Shown here piece by piece: positions 45,018-64,000 of a stretch of DNA of 64,000 nt. Within the stretch, counting starts at the first letter, position 1, and each line of letters begins with the position of its first letter. Made by a program: the position numbers and the translations under genes. Below the pieces are notes generated by a model. The model saw only the letters and a program-made list of their open reading frames with translations, did not search any database and was not told where the DNA came from. Origin of the DNA: a virus (taxonomy: Duplodnaviria > Heunggongvirae > Uroviricota > Caudoviricetes); the IMG/VR virus record IMGVR_UViG_3300050821_010761, positions 40,808-104,807 of that record; one strand, written 5' to 3'.

Positions 45018-47087
45018 TTATTCTTTGTCTTTTTTGAAAAAACTAGCTGCAAGACTTTTGTGGAAATCCAAGGACTTTTCCAGTTTCATGGATTTATTCA
45101 AAAGCATGGCTTGGCCAAATGCTCTTATCTCACCTTTAGTCATGTACGGCATGCGTGATTTCATGAAGGTTTCGAATTCTTCACGCTTTTCCCACTTATC
45201 GTACTCTTCTTCAACTCGCTTGTAAGCAGCTGATTTCTTAAGAGGGCGCTTCGGATGTTTCAACATTACTTCCGCAGTCTTCTTAGAATCGGGCCTATAA
45301 GTGCCTTGATCTATCTGACGTTGCAAGTGATCGATTTTCTTATCTTTTGGCATCCAATTAGGATCTTTTGAATCTTTTTCAAGACTTTCTTTAACCAAAG
45401 CAGCGCCGCCGACCAAACGATCAGGGGAACATAGTCCAGATCCAGCTTCCAGCGATTTATGCATGGTTTGTCTAGGTGCCTGCAAATTATTATGAAGCAT
45501 GTTATTGTTTGGGGCACCCGCTGCGGGAGTAGGATCCAAAACCTGTTTATTTGGAATACTCTGTCTTTGCTGATTTTGTGAAGATATATTAGAAGAGCTT
45601 CTATTGACTTTGTGCTTGTCCCAATGTCTTTTGCTATTATTTGGATAAGCTTCTTCTGCGCGTCTAGCTCTCTGTTGTTTCTGGTTTGCTTCTTTAGCGT
45701 TACTTTCTTCGCCTGGTCGTAGCGTTTCGGATTTTTTATAATCGACTTTACCGCTCATTCCTGGATCATGTAATTTGTCAGTCTTTGGAGAAGCATTTGG
45801 ATGTAAATTCGCGGATTTAGGTCTTGAATTACGCTTAATTTCGCGATCTTTCATGGAAATAGCAGCTGAACTATGCAAATTTGCTTTATCATTATGATGT
45901 CTAGCCATGGAAGGATTAGCATTAGCGGCCTTTTTATGCCAAGCGGCGGCTTCTTCATGTTCCTTAGCGTTAAATCCAGTTTCACTGACTTTTGCGTGGC
46001 TGTGTACATCCTTACCACTAGAAGTCGTCCCGATCTTAGAACCATTTGGAGTGGAAGGTGGAACAATTTTCAAAGCCTTTGACATATCCTCAGATTTTGG
46101 AAGGCTAGGTTTTGGCATTGAACGCATTTCTTTCAAAGTTTGACCATGAAGCTGCTTGGCTGAACCACCAATGTCTCTGATTACATTTGGATTAGTCGCG
46201 GATTCACCAATGGGTCCGCCATGAACTGGTTTATTGATACCTTTGTGGTGACTTACGTCTAAATTACCTTTATGTTTGGCCTGTGGATATGGAGATTCTT
46301 GAGAATTACCGTGACCCTTTGCCATTTTTTCAGTTCTAGCCATATCTGGTTCGGATTGCGTCATCATATTGGTAGGTGATATTGGGCCAGATCCGCTAAG
46401 ACCAGAAGATGAGCCGTAAGCCAAACCGCCAGCACCGACGTCTTTTTTCATCGGCTTTCTGAATAACTCTTTTGCCCGTTTGACCAAAGACTCTTTTTTT
46501 AGGAGATCCCAAAGACCTTCACTCTTATTCATCTTAACTACTTCAATTTCAACGTAATTTTCCGTTTTGAAAATATTATCAAGGTTGTCTTTTGGTTTTT
46601 TACCAGACGAAGGTACCATTTCGGCAACTGCTTGTTTATTACAAGGCAGTCCAGTGCAGGTGATTTTACGCGCAATAGAACGAACTATTGTATTACCTTG
46701 TTTCGATATGGTAGCACCTTCGACGCTGAACCCTATGATATCCTTAGCATTTTTGCCACGATGATCGAGGTCATAACGGAACAATCCAGCTACAGTCCTT
46801 GCAGAATCAGTGTAATCGTCAAACAATTCTCCAAGAACATATAGATAAGGAACCTGACACTTTTCCCAATAATACTTCTGACGATCATCCTCGCAATCCT
46901 TAACAGAGAAAATTTTTCTAGCTTTTAGGATCTTACCAACTAGTTGATCTGGCACGTCTTTTTTGTGCTCCCAGTTCAAACTTCCATCAATTTCGAGGCT
47001 ACTGATATCGAGACCTGCAATATCAACTATTTCGCCAGAAGAATCGATATTTTGGCTTGCGCCTATGCCGTCGACGTATGTCCCCAA
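45018..47087 (-). CDS. prohead protease (HK97-type) with long multi-segment C-terminal extension
   Basis: TTG start with GGGAG RBS; DSSGE, NWEH (His), GFSVEG (Ser), ITCTGLPCN in the first ~160 aa; ~500-aa low-complexity tail. Confidence 0.8.
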   Translation of the reverse strand: MGTYVDGIGASQNIDSSGEIVDIAGLDISSLEIDGSLNWEHKKDVPDQLVGKILKARKIFSVKDCEDDRQKYYWEKCQVPYLYVLGELFDDYTDSARTVAGLFRYDLDHRGKNAKDIIGFSVEGATISKQGNTIVRSIARKITCTGLPCNKQAVAEMVPSSGKKPKDNLDNIFKTENYVEIEVVKMNKSEGLWDLLKKESLVKRAKELFRKPMKKDVGAGGLAYGSSSGLSGSGPISPTNMMTQSEPDMARTEKMAKGHGNSQESPYPQAKHKGNLDVSHHKGINKPVHGGPIGESATNPNVIRDIGGSAKQLHGQTLKEMRSMPKPSLPKSEDMSKALKIVPPSTPNGSKIGTTSSGKDVHSHAKVSETGFNAKEHEEAAAWHKKAANANPSMARHHNDKANLHSSAAISMKDREIKRNSRPKSANLHPNASPKTDKLHDPGMSGKVDYKKSETLRPGEESNAKEANQKQQRARRAEEAYPNNSKRHWDKHKVNRSSSNISSQNQQRQSIPNKQVLDPTPAAGAPNNNMLHNNLQAPRQTMHKSLEAGSGLCSPDRLVGGAALVKESLEKDSKDPNWMPKDKKIDHLQRQIDQGTYRPDSKKTAEVMLKHPKRPLKKSAAYKRVEEEYDKWEKREEFETFMKSRMPYMTKGEIRAFGQAMLLNKSMKLEKSLDFHKSLAASFFKKDKE

Positions 47088-47823: not shown

Positions 47824-48912
47824 ATGCAGTACACAGAAACCGAGCTAGCAAAGCTCATCGAGACCGTGGAACAAGAATTCACGACTCATTTGAACAAAGC
47901 AGAAGTTGCCCATAGTGCAGCTTTGGCTAAGTCCGAAGTTTCTGCGTCTGGCACCTTGGCTAAAGCTGAAGACTCTAAACCGCCTAAAAAGGAAGAGTCT
48001 GCACCTAAAGAGGAGAAGGAATCAAATCCTTCCGAATCTGAAGCTGCACCTGAGGAGCACAATCAAGCTCCTAATATGGAAGCCGAAGCTGAACAACCTG
48101 CTGCGCCAGCCCCTGCTGCCGCCGCCGCTGGACACGGATACGACGACGAAGACATGGCTCATATGTTGAAAATGTATCAGTCAATGTCACGAGAAGAACT
48201 GCTTGCACACCACGATTGTGTGCGTCAATGCCTGGATGCAATGGGTGGCGAACAAGCTCCTGCTGAACCTGGTTTGGATAAATGTGGTCCTATGTCAATG
48301 GGCAAATCTGAGATCGAGGATGAAAATCCTGTTCTCAACTCGAAACCAAAAGCTGGTGGCGAGAACATGAACAATGACAAAAAGAATGGTGGCATTGAAA
48401 AAGCTCCCCCACACGACGCTCCTGGCGCTAAATCGGCTGCGAGTAATGCTAATGGTGCGAAGATTAACAAATCTGAGCATGACCGAAGAAATGGCGGAAA
48501 AATTGAAGGTCAGGCTCCAGGCAAAATCCCTGGCGCAAAATCTCCTGCTAGCAAAGCGGAAGGAATGCAAATGGAAAAGTCGGAAAACATGGAAATCGAA
48601 TTGCTCAAATCTGAACTGGAAGCCGAAAAAGCTTCGAATGCAGAACTGAAAAAGAGCTTCGATAAGGCAACTGAAATTTTGACTACTTTGGTCAAAAAAG
48701 TTGTCCCACAAGGAAAAGCAATCACTGAACTCGCTGTCATCGAAAAAAGCGAAGGCAATGAAGAAGTGAAAGAACTTTCTAAGTCAGAAGTCACACAGAT
48801 CCTGATGAAGAAAGACCAAACGAAATTGACACCAGCAGACAGAGAAGCAATCAACTCTTTCTATCTTGGTTCGTCTGATTTAAAAACTATTAGCCACCTG
48901 CTTAAGAATTAA
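47824..48912 (+). CDS. capsid scaffold-like protein
   Basis: Acidic low-complexity protein with coiled coil and about 12 hydrophobic-x-K-(S/A) motifs; directly before the capsid gene. Confidence 0.75.
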   Translation: MQYTETELAKLIETVEQEFTTHLNKAEVAHSAALAKSEVSASGTLAKAEDSKPPKKEESAPKEEKESNPSESEAAPEEHNQAPNMEAEAEQPAAPAPAAAAAGHGYDDEDMAHMLKMYQSMSREELLAHHDCVRQCLDAMGGEQAPAEPGLDKCGPMSMGKSEIEDENPVLNSKPKAGGENMNNDKKNGGIEKAPPHDAPGAKSAASNANGAKINKSEHDRRNGGKIEGQAPGKIPGAKSPASKAEGMQMEKSENMEIELLKSELEAEKASNAELKKSFDKATEILTTLVKKVVPQGKAITELAVIEKSEGNEEVKELSKSEVTQILMKKDQTKLTPADREAINSFYLGSSDLKTISHLLKN

Positions 48913-56071: not shown

Positions 56072-56904
56072 TGGATTTCAGAGAGACTGGACAAAAAACA
56101 TCGGGTACAGCAGTATATCCCGTTCACGCACAACAAACGTCTGGACTTTTAACCAGATGTGAGCCTTTACTTGATGTCAATAAATTCAAGCGCATATTCT
56201 TGACTGGCATTCCCCTAAGACTCAGAACTGGCGGAGTGATTACAGACGAAATCATCAGAGAAAGACTAAATTGGGCAATGAATGAAGCAGAGTTGATGAT
56301 TGGTTCCACTATCACACGTGAAGCCTTCATGCACAAAGTTCCATTCGATTATGCTTTATATAAATCCTACATTCACATCATGGCAGAAAAGGGTCCTATT
56401 ATTAGCCTTGAATCTTTAGCAATTGTGAGCGCCGACAATAACAATATTTTTACAATTCCCCCAACTTGGATCGAATGTACAAACTTCTCGAAGCGTTTGA
56501 TCAACGTCGTTCCACTTTTGGCTGCATATGGTGTCAACCAAGTTGGTGGTGCCGTAGGTAATGCTGGTATAGCATTTTTGACTGTCATGGATGGTCTTAA
56601 TTGGGTTCCTGCTTATTGGCAGATTAATTATACGGCTGGTCTTTCCAATACAGAAGGCCAAGTACCAATTCCAGTGAACGAGCTTATCGGTACAATTGCT
56701 GCCATTGATTTGTTGAGCATGATCGCAGCCACTTTCCTCTTCAACTCACAATCGCAAAGTCAAGACGGTATCAGTCAAAGTAGTTCTGGTCCAGGACCAA
56801 ACGTATACGCGAGACGTATAGAAGACCTAGAGAAAAAACGTGAAGTGCTCAAGAAACAGCTGAGATCGATTTTTTCGAACAGATATCTTGTCGGGAATTT
56901 CTAA
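56071..56904 (+). CDS. head-tail adaptor/neck protein
   Basis: YTAG...IPVPVNELIG, SQSQDGISQS pattern typical of head completion proteins; probable GTG start overlapping TAG. Confidence 0.65.
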   Translation: MDFRETGQKTSGTAVYPVHAQQTSGLLTRCEPLLDVNKFKRIFLTGIPLRLRTGGVITDEIIRERLNWAMNEAELMIGSTITREAFMHKVPFDYALYKSYIHIMAEKGPIISLESLAIVSADNNNIFTIPPTWIECTNFSKRLINVVPLLAAYGVNQVGGAVGNAGIAFLTVMDGLNWVPAYWQINYTAGLSNTEGQVPIPVNELIGTIAAIDLLSMIAATFLFNSQSQSQDGISQSSSGPGPNVYARRIEDLEKKREVLKKQLRSIFSNRYLVGNF

Positions 56905-57965
56905 TGGCTGCGGCGGCGAAAAGAGGCGAGGGCGTCCACAACAGCTACAAAGAAGAAGCAAAAAAAGGATGCGACGTATTATTCCGCGTAAAGATTAAAG
57001 GTAGAAAAACTCTTGTTGATGATATTCCTCTGCATATGTCACTTAAAATTTTTAGTGATCCCAAGGAATACGACTTAGATGAACTTAAGTCTTATGTAAA
57101 AGAACATGATATTTGCTCGCCAGATCCTAAAGATCTCAAATTAACTCCCATCATCTTCACCGCAGAAAAATCGAAACTCGATTACTATATGCTTAAGATA
57201 GAGGGTTTGCCTCCAAAATATAAAGCTCTATATGATCATTATAAGCATGTCGGTAATGTTTACAAAGAATTCATGACTCACGTCACCATAGATAAAGCGT
57301 TGTATGATGATTTGAAAGAAAATGGCATAAAAGCAGAAGATATAGAATTTGGTCCACTAATGGTAGAGCATGGTTCAAATAACGCCATTCATACTTTCGA
57401 CAAATCGGAAAAACTGGACAAAGGTATTAAACACGTTGCTGCTGCTCTTGGAGTAGTTGGCGCTATGGCTTCTCAGCCAGCAAAAGCTCCTGCTCCCCAA
57501 GCTGATCGTTCACCTGCTATGGTACAGCCAAATGCCTATAGTAGCAAAAGAATGCTTAATACTATATCATCAGTGGAAAGTCAACACGGCAAGTTTCAAA
57601 ATCATAAGCCCGTTGGTGGTATTCACGGTGGGGAGAGCGCTTATGGCAAATATGCTCTTATGCCTGCGACTATCAGAGACACCATCCATATGGATCCTCA
57701 ATTAAAAATCAAGCATGCAAAAGCTATGAATCTACGTGGCGATGATATGCGACGCTACATGGAAGATAATCCAGGATTAGAAGATACGATAGCGCAGAAA
57801 CATTTATCAAGATTAGAGCATCACTTTGGACAAAATCCAGAGAAAATTGGTTATGCATGGCTTAACGGTGTTCGCGGTACCTATAAGGCTGGCAAGAATA
57901 AGATGGACATTTCGAATCACTGGCATGTGAAAAAAATAAAAGATGCCTATTCAAAGGAAAAATAA
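56904..57965 (+). CDS. 2H phosphoesterase (Acb1-like) fused to a lysozyme/lytic transglycosylase-like domain
   Basis: HxS LHMSL and HxT THVTI about 80 aa apart; C-terminal ISSVESQHG...AYGKYALMP...AWLNG. Confidence 0.7.
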   Translation: MAAAAKRGEGVHNSYKEEAKKGCDVLFRVKIKGRKTLVDDIPLHMSLKIFSDPKEYDLDELKSYVKEHDICSPDPKDLKLTPIIFTAEKSKLDYYMLKIEGLPPKYKALYDHYKHVGNVYKEFMTHVTIDKALYDDLKENGIKAEDIEFGPLMVEHGSNNAIHTFDKSEKLDKGIKHVAAALGVVGAMASQPAKAPAPQADRSPAMVQPNAYSSKRMLNTISSVESQHGKFQNHKPVGGIHGGESAYGKYALMPATIRDTIHMDPQLKIKHAKAMNLRGDDMRRYMEDNPGLEDTIAQKHLSRLEHHFGQNPEKIGYAWLNGVRGTYKAGKNKMDISNHWHVKKIKDAYSKEK

Positions 57966-59650: not shown

Positions 59651-60163
59651 ATGCCAAACATTCGAGAGCGTCAAATACCAGGTGATCAATCACGAGATAT
59701 GTCAACCATTGAGTTGTTGACATACAACGAAAAAGCGGGAGCAAGAAAAAGCGTAGAAGTTGGTCGAGCCCTAATACCGCTCGGAGATGGAGCAGGTGGA
59801 TTTACCACTAATGCTGCTACTGCACCAAGAATTCTTCCAAGTGCTGGTATTAACCTTGCAATTTACAATAATTCTGGTGCGGTTGGTTCGATCACAGTTG
59901 GCGATAACACTATGGTATCACAAGCTCCTGGTGCAGTGCAAATTTCTGGATCCAACGTTTTTGTCGGTGTTCCAGTGCAACCTAATGGTTGGCTATATCT
60001 GTCTTCTGCACAGTGGAATTGGGTCGCTGCTAGCGCTTCCACGTTGTTAGTCTTCATCATCGACGATCCTACTTACATGTTTACTTTGCCTGCTACCGTG
60101 TCTAGCAATCCGCAACAAACGGCTGCTCCTCAAGGCGCTCCAGTAAACGAGCCCAATACATAA
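59651..60163 (+). CDS. probable virion structural protein
   Basis: 170 aa beta-rich. Confidence 0.65.
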   Translation: MPNIRERQIPGDQSRDMSTIELLTYNEKAGARKSVEVGRALIPLGDGAGGFTTNAATAPRILPSAGINLAIYNNSGAVGSITVGDNTMVSQAPGAVQISGSNVFVGVPVQPNGWLYLSSAQWNWVAASASTLLVFIIDDPTYMFTLPATVSSNPQQTAAPQGAPVNEPNT

Positions 60164-60175
60164 TAGGAGCGCAAG

Positions 60176-61114
60176 GTGTCCTCTGGCGCTAATTTCTTTT
60201 TAAAGAAAACACTAGGCGAAGATTTTCTTCAGTCATTGGAGAAATTTGAATTGTGGAAGATGGGAACTAAAACCGTCGTAGATCCAGAAGAAATTAAAAT
60301 TGCGCTAAAAATCGTTCCACGCACTCTAATGAGCATGCTTATTCATAATTTGACTAGCATGGAAATCGGCGATACCAAAGAAATAGAGATTCCAGTCGAG
60401 AGTAGTAGTCCTCATCAAGCCATGGTCAGAGTCAATAAGCACGAGAGGGACGTTTACTCTGGTGAGATCGAGCAAGGCAACAAAAAGATAGCGGAATTCA
60501 AATATCGTTCTATCCCTGGTGTTGGTTTGGTTATCATGAGCGCTCTAGAGCTTTATGATGTTGAAAGACTCAATGATCATTCTAAAGACCACTCTATGGA
60601 AATGGAACATAAAGTCCAAAGAATGATTGATGATCGCCTAGCATTACACGATTTAATCGGTAAGGTTGTTGACAAGAAGTTATCCGAACGTGAAGCCATA
60701 CAAAAGGTGATTCTTCATAAACTTACAGAAGAACTTCATAGAGAGAAAGAAGGCGTTGGTCCTAGTGAGCAAGTAAGACAATTACACGAAACGCAGGATG
60801 AACTTAGAAAAGAAAATAAAAAATTAAAAAAGAAACTTGCACTTAATGAGTTCTTAGAAGAGAGAAAGAAAAAGTTACACAAAAAAGAACACCCAATATC
60901 TCTTTCCAAGGGTGAGCACGTTTCTTGTCCAGATTGCGGTAAAAACATATTCGACGGTACGGTATTTGCTGGCTGTATTTGTTATGGCGACGATATGGAT
61001 AAAAAATTATACATTACCAAATCAGAAGGTGGAGTAAAAGTAAGATTCGGTAAAGGATGGGATCCAGAAAATATTGAAATGCTATTGGATGTCCTGAGAG
61101 GCAAACGTGGATAA
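60176..61114 (+). CDS. hypothetical protein with coiled coil and C-terminal zinc ribbon
   Basis: GTG start; LSKGE then CPDCG...CIC. Confidence 0.7.
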   Translation: MSSGANFFLKKTLGEDFLQSLEKFELWKMGTKTVVDPEEIKIALKIVPRTLMSMLIHNLTSMEIGDTKEIEIPVESSSPHQAMVRVNKHERDVYSGEIEQGNKKIAEFKYRSIPGVGLVIMSALELYDVERLNDHSKDHSMEMEHKVQRMIDDRLALHDLIGKVVDKKLSEREAIQKVILHKLTEELHREKEGVGPSEQVRQLHETQDELRKENKKLKKKLALNEFLEERKKKLHKKEHPISLSKGEHVSCPDCGKNIFDGTVFAGCICYGDDMDKKLYITKSEGGVKVRFGKGWDPENIEMLLDVLRGKRG

Positions 61115-62975
61115 TTTCAGATGGATTGTCAACTATGATGGTGATGATGCTGGACGCATGATTGGCCGAGCAATTTTGTCTAACCAGTTGGGTGCATTGC
61201 ATGAGGCATCGGATAGGATAAAACTTGGTAACGAGATAGTAGAAAAATGGTCAAATGATCATGGAGGTGTCACTATATCTAATGGCGGTGACCAGGGTGC
61301 ATTTGAAGTTCCCCATGAAGCACTTGAGAGTCTCGATCAACTAATGAGAGATTATCATTTTGCTACTCAGCTTACTATGTCGATGGGAGTAGGTAAAACT
61401 CTATCTGAATCTGGAAAAGCATTGTTAGCTGCAAAATTTAGAGGTAAGAATCAAATTGTATATTATGATTTTTCCGTAGAAAATGACTTAGAAAAAGTAA
61501 AAAATAATTTAACGCATGGCACTGCTTCCGAAGAAGAAAAAAAACAGGGCGAAGCTTACTTACAACCAACTGAACAGGAAATTCCAATGGACGAGAAAGA
61601 TAAATATAAAAACGCGTACGCGCAAACAGATCCAGAACCATTGTGGAATTCCGAAGAACCTGACGATGCTGGTGGTCCACAACCAATGCATGATTCTGAA
61701 CAGCTTCCAACAGACGGTACATTAACGCAGGAACACGATTGTCCTTACTGTAATGAACTACAAGCCCAAAATATAACCGATGAAGATTGTCCATACTGCG
61801 CTGACACTGGACATGATCCCAATGCACCTGATCATTTGGATGATTGCCAATATTGTGCCGTAATGAGCCACGATCCAGATATGGAAGGTCATACTGATGA
61901 TTGCGCTTATTGTCAAGAAATGGCAATGCACGATCCTATGATGGATGGTCATGCCGATGATTGTCCGTATTGCGCTAGATCGCATGATCCAAACATGGAA
62001 GGTCACCCAGAAGATTGTCAATATTGTGCTAGAGCAGATCAATGGAATGGCGGGAATGGTCAAGAGATCGAACCTAGCAGCCCTTCTTCTCAAGTACTGC
62101 CTACCACTCAAGATAGCCAGGATTATGATGGTCAGGACTTACCTCGTCCCGATCTAGATAAACCGTCGGCTATTTCTGCGGTTCCATCAGGACTTGGATT
62201 TAATACGGATTCACAAACAAATGAAAATATCAAGTTAGAAGATACGCAAGGAAAGCAAGATCCAAATATGGATGCTCAAATGGCTCAAGCTAGCAATCCA
62301 GAGGGTCAAGAGACTGTCAACGATATCATTGGTGAAATTGATGCAGTTCCTACCGATGAAGTTCCAGGAAGACCGAAAATTAATCAGACCGACGATGCTA
62401 ACATGGCCATTGGCACTAATATGGAAGGCAACGTAAGCAGAGAAGATAGTTACAGTCAGGATGTTCCTACTGATTTGGGACTTGGAGAAGAACCAGACAA
62501 TGATTCCCCAGACATTAGTTCAGTCCTTAAAGAAGGTTTAGACAATCACGCCGATAGTATTAAACGTGAGAAAGTCATGGAAATGGTCGGCGAAGCTTTG
62601 GAAGGTTTTAAGGCTAGTAAAATGATTATTGAGAGAGCTAAAACTGAAGCTCCCCAATTCTATCAGTCGTCCATTGCGATGCTTAAAGCTATGATCGAGA
62701 TGTGTAAGATGCTTGGTTTAGACCAACAACAAGCGATGACTCCATCTGGCGTTTTAAATCCACAAGCGTCAGCCGATGAACCAATAGTTGATTCGAAAGA
62801 TCAAGTAGAAGATCCTGAAGCTTCGTATGAAGCACACATGAGCCAGCCTGGTAATACGCCAATGGGTGGACCAGAAAGTGCTGAACAAGACGGGCATCCA
62901 AACTACTCGAATCTTTTTCCTCCTCACCCAGATGGGAAGGCGGGAAACTCCGACCCAAAGCTTCAGGGGTTATAG
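61107..62975 (+). CDS. mCpol (minimal CRISPR polymerase) domain protein with His/Cys repeats and acidic linker
   Basis: YDGDDAGR...GGVTISNGGDQ...TMSMGVG..LSE...ALLAAKFRGKNQI in the first ~120 aa; six DCxYC repeats. Confidence 0.8.
   Translation: MDNFRWIVNYDGDDAGRMIGRAILSNQLGALHEASDRIKLGNEIVEKWSNDHGGVTISNGGDQGAFEVPHEALESLDQLMRDYHFATQLTMSMGVGKTLSESGKALLAAKFRGKNQIVYYDFSVENDLEKVKNNLTHGTASEEEKKQGEAYLQPTEQEIPMDEKDKYKNAYAQTDPEPLWNSEEPDDAGGPQPMHDSEQLPTDGTLTQEHDCPYCNELQAQNITDEDCPYCADTGHDPNAPDHLDDCQYCAVMSHDPDMEGHTDDCAYCQEMAMHDPMMDGHADDCPYCARSHDPNMEGHPEDCQYCARADQWNGGNGQEIEPSSPSSQVLPTTQDSQDYDGQDLPRPDLDKPSAISAVPSGLGFNTDSQTNENIKLEDTQGKQDPNMDAQMAQASNPEGQETVNDIIGEIDAVPTDEVPGRPKINQTDDANMAIGTNMEGNVSREDSYSQDVPTDLGLGEEPDNDSPDISSVLKEGLDNHADSIKREKVMEMVGEALEGFKASKMIIERAKTEAPQFYQSSIAMLKAMIEMCKMLGLDQQQAMTPSGVLNPQASADEPIVDSKDQVEDPEASYEAHMSQPGNTPMGGPESAEQDGHPNYSNLFPPHPDGKAGNSDPKLQGL
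61734..62030 (+). repeat. tandem peptide repeats HDPxMxGHxDDCxYC
   Basis: Six DCxYC units, four preceded by HDP...H. Confidence 0.9.
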
Positions 62976-62998
62976 GGCAACCCGTAGGAAAACTGCCC
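62942..62998 (+). promoter_or_regulatory. candidate programmed -1 ribosomal frameshift signal
   Basis: In-frame heptamers G GGA AAC (62942) and C CCA AAG (62954); H-type pseudoknot GGGTT/AACCC plus GGGC/GCCC 6 nt downstream. Confidence 0.65.
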
Positions 62999-63205
62999 AC
63001 CAGTCAAACTACTCCGCACGTACCTAGGACACCTTTCCTAGAAGGGGCAGTAAATGATAAAGGACAAAAAAAGGTCATCGATCCTATTACTGGCAAAACC
63101 AGATGGATTACAATGCGTGAAGGAAAAGTTAAGAGTCCAACTGGAGTACCAGTAAAACCAGAGAGAATAGAAGAAAATGGCCCTAAAGTTCCAGCTAAAC
63201 GTTGA
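62960..63205 (+). CDS. -1 frame C-terminal extension (81 aa) of the mCpol protein
   Basis: Frame open 62885-63205 with no ATG/GTG/TTG until 63113: ASGVIGQPVGKLP...KVIDPITGKTRWITMREGKV...PAKR*. Confidence 0.55.
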   Translation, partial: ASGVIGQPVGKLPTSQTTPHVPRTPFLEGAVNDKGQKKVIDPITGKTRWITMREGKVKSPTGVPVKPERIEENGPKVPAKR

Positions 63206-63929
63206 AGAGATCGCTAGTACATTCGGCGAATTTGCAAAGGAAGTAGCGGATGACATGCGAAAAGCAGTCAGGGATCTGGCTACTCTTACACGTGCGCAGA
63301 TTCACCTGGAAGTGCAGTCCGAATTGCATTCGACTAGAAAAATTTATCTGGATAATCTTTCTGATGCCACGGAATCTTCCCCTGGAGTTTGGACGATTAC
63401 TTTGGACGAACCTGCTTTTTTCATTGAAGAAGGAATTGAGCCAAATCATGACATGAAGCCCGATTTACTTAAAGGAAAGCCTTATCGAGTAATTCCTTTC
63501 AAATATAATACTGCTCCTACTGAAACGGTACCCTCAACTCAATTGCTAATTACGGAAATCAAGAAAAAGCTAAGAAATGAAAAGATACCGTACAAGAAGA
63601 TTGAATACAATAAAGACGGTAGTCCAAAAGTAGGGAAGCTTCATGATTTAAGGTGGGGCACTCAGATACCTGGTGGAAACCAAATACCTGGAAGAGGCAA
63701 TACGCCGCAGCTCAAAGGCTTGTCGATTTACCAACAGATCACGAAAAGCGGTAACGTAAGACGTGATATATTAACATTTCGCACAGTGAGCGCTGGACCA
63801 AAGAGCCAAGGGAAATGGTTGCACCCTGGGCTGAAAGCCAAGCATTACATGGACAAAGCATTCGATGAAGCAATGACCAAATGGGAGCAAGAAATTTTGC
63901 CTGAAATCATGCAGAAGTGGGGTAGATAA
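63177..63929 (+). CDS. tail completion/neck protein (HK97 gp10-like N-terminus)
   Basis: Helical N-terminus, WTITLDE..FFIEEG, FRTVS...KWLHPG. Confidence 0.6.
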   Translation: MALKFQLNVEEIASTFGEFAKEVADDMRKAVRDLATLTRAQIHLEVQSELHSTRKIYLDNLSDATESSPGVWTITLDEPAFFIEEGIEPNHDMKPDLLKGKPYRVIPFKYNTAPTETVPSTQLLITEIKKKLRNEKIPYKKIEYNKDGSPKVGKLHDLRWGTQIPGGNQIPGRGNTPQLKGLSIYQQITKSGNVRRDILTFRTVSAGPKSQGKWLHPGLKAKHYMDKAFDEAMTKWEQEILPEIMQKWGR

Positions 63930-63931
63930 AT

Positions 63932-64000
63932 ATGGGTGTATTCCAAGGCGACGTTGTAATTTCTGCAATGTTAAATCGTGGTTTAGAGGATATCAGAAAA
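63932..64000 (+). CDS. partial CDS (runs off window end)
   Basis: MGVFQGDVVISAMLNRGLEDIRK... Confidence 0.55.
   Translation, partial: MGVFQGDVVISAMLNRGLEDIRK

Follow-up and report, generated by a model that had tools for sequence, protein, structure and literature searches.

A probable programmed -1 frameshift extending a phage mCpol-domain protein by a conserved C-terminal module, and its varied wiring among relatives

Taken as a whole, the data point very strongly to a programmed -1 slippage of tRNA-Pro and tRNA-Lys at C_CCA_AAG (62954-60), by which a single mCpol-domain phage gene would yield products of 699 and 622 aa. The gene lies near the end of a 64,000-nucleotide stretch (the window), itself part of a 168.8-kb virus record. 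The two isoforms from a programmed -1 shift that the initial annotation had proposed are borne out by comparative sequence evidence, in that the site is conserved and the module encoded in the shifted frame is found in frame elsewhere. The proposed mechanism follows the cassette of the Escherichia coli dnaX/IS3 type, which combines an internal Shine-Dalgarno (SD)-like sequence, a slippery heptamer and a 3' RNA structure. Ribosomes holding tRNA-Pro and tRNA-Lys on C_CCA_AAG, a heptamer rated highly shift-prone in E. coli (PMC5009743), would be slowed by a structure 6 nt downstream, and pairing with 16S rRNA ~13 nt upstream probably slows them too. A fraction would then slip back one base and add 81 residues, giving the 699-aa form, while the remaining ribosomes would stop four codons on, giving the 622-aa form.

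The junction, the protein and its setting

The features on which the model rests are as follows.

61107-62975, + strand: 0-frame ORF, the short isoform of 622 aa (mCpol domain, CxxC repeats, acidic disordered linkers, helical domain)
61128-61466, + strand: mCpol (PF18182) palm domain, aa 8-120, with DGD and GGD motifs (Pfam E 8.5e-13; PDB 9nwn and 9mnr; pLDDT ~95)
61740-62036, + strand: CxxC (CPYC-like) repeats, the cysteines near-invariant in the alignment
62508-62726, + strand: conserved three-helix domain, aa 468-540 (alignment and model)
62934-62940, + strand: SD-like GGGAAGG, candidate 5' stimulator, 13 nt 5' of the shift site and weak in the window genome
62942-62948, + strand: G_GGA_AAC heptamer, non-conserved and probably incidental
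62954-62960, + strand: C_CCA_AAG slippery heptamer (Pro-Lys), the conserved -1 shift site
62960-63205, + strand: -1 frame extension of 81 aa (conserved core 62969-63166; predicted beta-hairpin 63065-63112)
62967-62998, + strand: candidate 3' stimulator, a compact H-type pseudoknot 6 nt past C_CCA_AAG (S1 62967-71/62979-83; S2 62975-78/62995-98)
62973-62975, + strand: 0-frame TAG, four codons past the shift site
63177-63929, + strand: downstream gene, weakly Neck1/tail-completion-like (phrog_5, E 0.058, weak)

The 622-aa ORF ends in Gly-Asn-Ser-Asp-Pro-Lys-Leu-Gln-Gly-Leu-stop, and both GGGAAAC (62942-48) and CCCAAAG (62954-60) stand in the X_XXY_YYZ register of ORF 61107-62975. Stem 1 pairs GGGTT (62967-71) with AACCC (62979-83) and stem 2 pairs GGGC (62975-78) with GCCC (62995-98), the first base of stem 2 being the G of the TAG at 62973-75; heptamers, stems and stop all lie, base for base, where they had been placed previously. 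The -1 frame is free of stops from 62885 to the TGA at 63203-05 and, as had been claimed, is without an early start codon, since its single ATG, GTG or TTG is a late ATG at 63113. The gap of about 200 bp that would otherwise be left measures 201 nt from the 0-frame stop to the next gene (63177), which the extension frame overlaps by 29 nt. A shift at C_CCA_AAG exchanges the last 4 residues for 81 new ones (618 + 81 = 699 aa vs 622 aa), so that the extension first described as 81 aa is correct as a count of new residues, whereas the net gain is 77. Promoters and terminators were not in excess at 60000-64000, the gap contained no terminator, and no tRNA gene was found in the window genome.

The identification of the protein as mCpol holds, as the PF18182 profile scores 49.1 bits against a curated cut-off of 26.4 and the acidic motifs are present. 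The motifs D-G/A-D and xGGD-E/Q occur in 52 of 55 loci, the window carrying NGGDQ, and the palm domain matches PDB 9nwn (E 2e-7) and 9mnr (E 6e-7). Beyond this domain lie the CxxC repeats, which are probably metal-binding by their sequence, and the three-helix domain, with long acidic linkers of low confidence between domains in the structure model. One homolog (P0060) has ~190 additional N-terminal residues ahead of the mCpol domain, an apparent fused extra domain. A locus scan using the mCpol domain as a single protein returned no matches.

The gene sits within a portal-protease-capsid-neck-sheath block: it lies 3' of the portal, maturation protease and major capsid genes and 5' of the weakly neck-like gene and of long genes that match the sheath block of Myxococcus phage Mx1 (WNM70340.1), the sole isolated relative found, by order. 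The last 8 nt of the upstream gene (60176-61114, 312 aa, with C-terminal Cys motifs but matching no family) run over the mCpol start; in the relatives fetched this position is taken by a gene of ~290-320 aa, a possible partner. For the gene at 56904-57965, Pfam returned no 2H phosphoesterase match at E 0.1. Motifs of the form [L/M/F]-x-K-[S/A], many of them followed by Glu and resembling prohead-protease sites, number nine each in the putative scaffold (47824-48912) and the maturation protease (45018-47087). K-[S/A]-E stands directly past the mCpol domain in 24 of 63 mCpol homologs, and motifs of this type precede the C-terminal module of the Mx1 homolog. Such protease-site-like motifs, given here as raw counts, could reflect packaging into and processing within the head.

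A conserved module and its wirings

The extension carries a module of ~65 aa, which in 24 of 68 distinct loci (near-identical ones having been merged) forms the in-frame C-terminal end of the same protein. The -1 frame of the window and the in-frame C-terminus of P0020 share 75% identity, conservation of the extension runs at 54-83% identity, and loci picked by the protein body rather than by the module likewise carry the module downstream. Matches are weak in the most distant cases, namely L125 and the C-terminus of the Mx1 homolog. Further, the module is confined to proteins of the mCpol family or called fragments of them, and it occurs once in the window genome; a shared packaging tag was rejected because no second copy exists there. 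The module is basic, and its predicted structure is an extended chain bearing a single beta-hairpin (pLDDT 69, pTM 0.37), so that the hairpin suggested at the outset recurs in the model at modest confidence. No Pfam or PHROG family and no Atlas match was found for the extension, and its low-confidence model (pTM 0.37) had no fold match among PDB representatives or BFVD; repeat-rich matches from the representative search (P0087, P0104, P0109 and others) were dismissed as short hairpin-motif noise.

Four arrangements of the module were distinguished. In class a, comprising 34 of the 68 loci and including the window, it lies in the -1 frame behind C_CCA_AAA/G (31 loci) or A_AAA_AAG (3 loci), with the slippery site 0-9 codons 5' of the stop. 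Class b (10/68) has it in the +1 frame with CC_CCA_CAG in all ten. Class c (14/68) is fused in frame yet has a slippery site where classes a and b have theirs (7 C_CCA_AAR, 5 A_AAA_AAG, 2 CC_CCA_CAG), the shifted frame stopping within 1-14 codons, and class d (10/68) is fused with no slippery site, some members retaining Pro-Lys in non-slippery codons. The conservation of the signal in homologs that had been called for is thus found: C_CCA_AAR or A_AAA_AAG stands at the junction in 34 of 34 loci with the module in the -1 frame, against 89 heptamers in 33,161 codons elsewhere in the genes (0.27%), where slippery spelling is used by 5 of 108 Pro-Lys, 4 of 163 Pro-Gln and 12 of 154 Lys-Lys pairs. 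The usual distance from the site to the conserved Lys-Leu-Pro is 29 nt in class a, 28 nt in class b and 30 nt in class c, and the long products would therefore share one linker length. Overlapping double slippery sites (C_CCA_AAA, then A_AAA_AAN) occur at L017, L018, L083, L108 and L121, while at the fused L013, L086, L132 and L137 A_AAA_AAG encodes part of Lys-Lys-Ser-Glu, resembling the K-S-E motif. At L125/L126, in a very distant homolog, the TAA of the mCpol ORF comes immediately after A_AAA_AAG, and a long open -1 frame with a weak module match runs on past the module.

Stimulators were sought on both sides of the site. In the 42 nt 3' of it, compared with synonymous shuffles that held the extension amino acids fixed (threshold z < -1.5), a stem more stable than in the shuffles was found in 28 of 34 class a, 9 of 10 class b, 14 of 14 class c and 0 of 10 class d loci; these stems start mostly 5-7 nt past the site, and their sequences vary widely. 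On the 5' side, 45 of 58 slippery loci have an SD-like sequence within the 22 nt before the site, compared with 311 of 4009 background windows (~8%), and its spacing to the slippery site is mostly 10, 11 or 14 nt. Anti-SD pairing averages -8.9 to -10.2, where synonymous shuffles give -5.2 to -5.8 and class d loci -0.4, and the Glu codons of the SD region are biased towards GAG (44:16 vs 659:2682 in the gene body). In the window itself, the duplex of GGGAAGG with the anti-SD scores -7.7, compared with -5.1 for synonymous shuffles (p ~0.07). The stimulators appear to track the slippery site and not the protein.

To follow these changes, quick trees were built from the concatenated mCpol domain, helical domain and downstream gene, with the extension excluded and L076 omitted for too few columns. 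At least 8 changes of polarity (shift to long or shift to short) and at least 8 of the -1/-2 motif fall on the tree, counts that recombination may inflate and that take gains and losses together, the trees being unrooted and concatenated. On starred branches, the fused L013 is sister to L134 (-1), and L035 (-2) is sister to L133 (-1). The link between site and structure could be followed in 5 independent pairs on well-supported branches (a mean of 4.1 agree and 0 disagree; median p 0.125), as kin share both wiring and stimulator traits and hence leave few such pairs.

Every relative appears to encode the module, and selection seems to maintain the long form throughout and the short form in most cases. 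Ten signal-free fused relatives make the long form alone, as Mx1 probably does too, and because of this the short form is, so far as gene structure tells, dispensable in some lineages. That the module is universally kept while the short form is sometimes lost suggests an essential binding role. It is possible, if somewhat doubtful, that the module serves for docking, as an arm that takes on its fold when bound to a virion component, such that the long form would be anchored and the short form either unanchored or co-assembling via the helical domain.

Alternative readings of the junction

Several other readings could be drawn from the same features. On a single metagenomic contig, an indel from sequencing or assembly, or recent breakage of the gene, might be suspected. 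However, the frame is interrupted at this Pro-Lys, or at Lys-Lys, and by an equal offset in 33 further distinct loci, which come from unrelated samples; the nearest relative (L131, 76% identical across the tree columns) shows this break as well, and the extension is conserved over the range given above. In-frame fusion of the module in 24 relatives rules out an indel for practical purposes. Polymerase slippage normally requires ~8-9 identical bases in a run, and the window site holds only CCC and AAA. That transcriptional rather than ribosomal slippage makes the second product is thus barely credible, even if it is known for Thermus dnaX (PMC5009743) and some relatives have runs of 6-7 A; in addition, the SD and the 3' stem are ribosome-level stimulators. 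The module could also be a separate small protein, begun by independent initiation or by translational coupling near the 0-frame stop with the aid of the SD, as is suggested by the stand-alone versions that gene callers list (P0076, P0096, P0100, P0101 and others), by the conserved SD-like sequence upstream and by an ATG, GTG or TTG within 90 nt before the conserved Lys-Leu-Pro in 10 of 44 out-of-frame loci. This is nevertheless very improbable, as 34 of the 44 loci, the window included, have no such start, the SD stands 10-14 nt before the slippery site and not before a start codon, and 14 fused genes, which need no restart, still have the site, the SD and the hairpin.

Within the frameshift reading, the initial annotation had envisaged tandem slippery sites with an H-type pseudoknot, a scheme that in its full form has both heptamers in use and the pseudoknot as drawn as the essential stimulator. 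Shifting at G_GGA_AAC is known from haloarchaeal viruses and from mammalian ribosomes, and in the window it would give the same 699-aa length. However, among the 58 slippery loci this heptamer occurs in the window only, 18 nt from stem 1, so that it is probably incidental; tandem use was rejected on conservation, C_CCA_AAG alone being conserved, and the combined scheme is decidedly unlikely. The pseudoknot itself fares better. The 3' element of the window is not a strong hairpin and fits a compact H-type pseudoknot; minimum-energy folding gave a z of -0.2 by a method that cannot score pseudoknots, hence a separate stem search, in which a pseudoknot as good was found in 1 of 3000 synonymous shuffles with the codon usage of the gene and 14 of 3000 with uniform usage, figures that are optimistic as the criteria were set post hoc. 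The same architecture is allowed with different bases at L030 and L046, whereas two of the five stem-1 pairs are broken (three kept) at L009, L011 and L043, and L131 has a long hairpin in its place; across 8 sequences 72% of cells are paired, and covariation is not above shuffles. On these grounds the pseudoknot is probable in the window genome, and plausible at L030 and L046, yet interchangeable within the family, whose stimulators are mostly simple stem-loops, so that the earlier claim would stand for the window but not for the family. A further question concerns class b, for which a +1 shift is an unlikely though not negligible alternative to -2. The frame geometry fits both equally, and a stop, which is known to stimulate +1 shifts, lies one codon past the motif in 7 of 10 loci. 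However, CC_CCA_CAG (12/12, including two fused genes) keeps the first two pairs of both tRNAs after a -2 shift and not after +1, the stem starts 6 nt downstream as in backward shifts, and the SD spacing is mostly 14 nt, where SD stimulators act at 9-14 nt for -1 and at 3 nt for +1 (PMC5009743). A -2 shift is therefore likely in the CC_CCA_CAG relatives: moving from CCA to CCC and from CAG to CAC would leave each tRNA with two pairs, and the stimulators are arranged as for backward slippage.

Significance and comparison with known systems

In a literature search that covered few subscription papers, no account of this frameshift, nor of mCpol encoded by phages, was found. The slipping mechanism is of a known kind; the gene family, the co-existing wirings and the probable -2 site appear new, phage Mu being the sole -2 case on bacterial ribosomes named in a review (PMC5009743). 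The family offers a natural mutagenesis series for bacterial recoding, with -1, probable -2 and shift-to-stop forms, interchangeable hairpins or pseudoknot, and signal-free controls. For annotation, databases lack the true C-terminus, or give it as a spurious small gene, for about two thirds of these phages, and the findings bear on why phages keep a cyclase domain of Panoptes defence among virion genes. The most far-reaching scenario, speculative and on balance rather unlikely in full, is that one phage family repeatedly rewired a single cassette of SD, slippery site and stem between -1, -2 and shift-to-stop, that CC_CCA_CAG is a new SD- and hairpin-stimulated bacterial -2 site, and that the switch, via the C-terminal module, sets the anchored versus free share of an active mCpol cyclase in the virion, for delivery against nucleotide-guarded defences such as Panoptes.

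The closest mechanistic parallel is the tau/gamma pair of E. coli dnaX, which likewise has an internal SD 9-14 nt upstream, a heptamer ending in a Lys codon, a 3' stem-loop and two nested products (PMC5009743). Of the elements of the dnaX/IS3 cassette, the window has the heptamer, a 3' structure 5-9 nt downstream and conserved coding in the new frame together with a conserved site, while the internal SD, general in the family (45/58), is weak there (GGGAAGG, p ~0.07). Fourteen relatives would shift into a stop as dnaX does (in several, A_AAA_AAG is followed after one codon by the stop), and the window has the reversed form proposed for Chlorobium phaeobacteroides dnaX (PMC5009743). The two systems differ in that dnaX encodes a clamp loader and the present gene belongs to a phage structural block, with C_CCA_AAR as the main site, 8 or more reversals of polarity in a single family, and the same stimulators serving a probable -2 form. 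The tail assembly chaperones G/GT (lambda -1, Mu -2, some +1) share the setting of a phage morphogenesis gene with two products and a variable direction of shift (PMC5009743). However, the protein is unrelated, and the mCpol gene lies upstream of the sheath and not between tail tube and tape measure; a chaperone identity was rejected on this placement among head-completion and neck genes, upstream of long genes like those of the Mx1 sheath block. The mCpol family also has fused and shift-to-stop forms, and its probable -2 motif is unlike the G-rich motif of Mu.

Minor C-terminal modules of virion proteins that are frameshifted or in frame depending on the phage are further known from T7/T3 gp10B, Lactobacillus phage A2 and the Ig-like extensions of Listeria phages PSA and A118, with pseudoknots in A2 and PSA. 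The present module differs in being confined to one family and vertically inherited, with a signal that is rewired rather than lost, and in not being Ig-like, an identity rejected as there was no Pfam/PHROG match or fold match and the low-confidence model has one hairpin and no beta-sandwich. CsoS2A/CsoS2B of alpha-carboxysomes, a cellular microcompartment, is an analogy only, with no homology expected: it is largely disordered, about half of its family shifts, two lengths arise via -1, and the long form carries the shell-related C-terminus (PMC5009743). Lastly, OptS of Panoptes (mCpol, PF18182; PDB 9nwn, 9mnr) has a homologous N-terminal palm domain. A Pfam scan of 8 neighbours revealed no family of the Panoptes membrane effector, and the window protein differs from OptS in being phage-encoded, in belonging to a multidomain family of 500-700 aa, and in residing within a block of virion genes.
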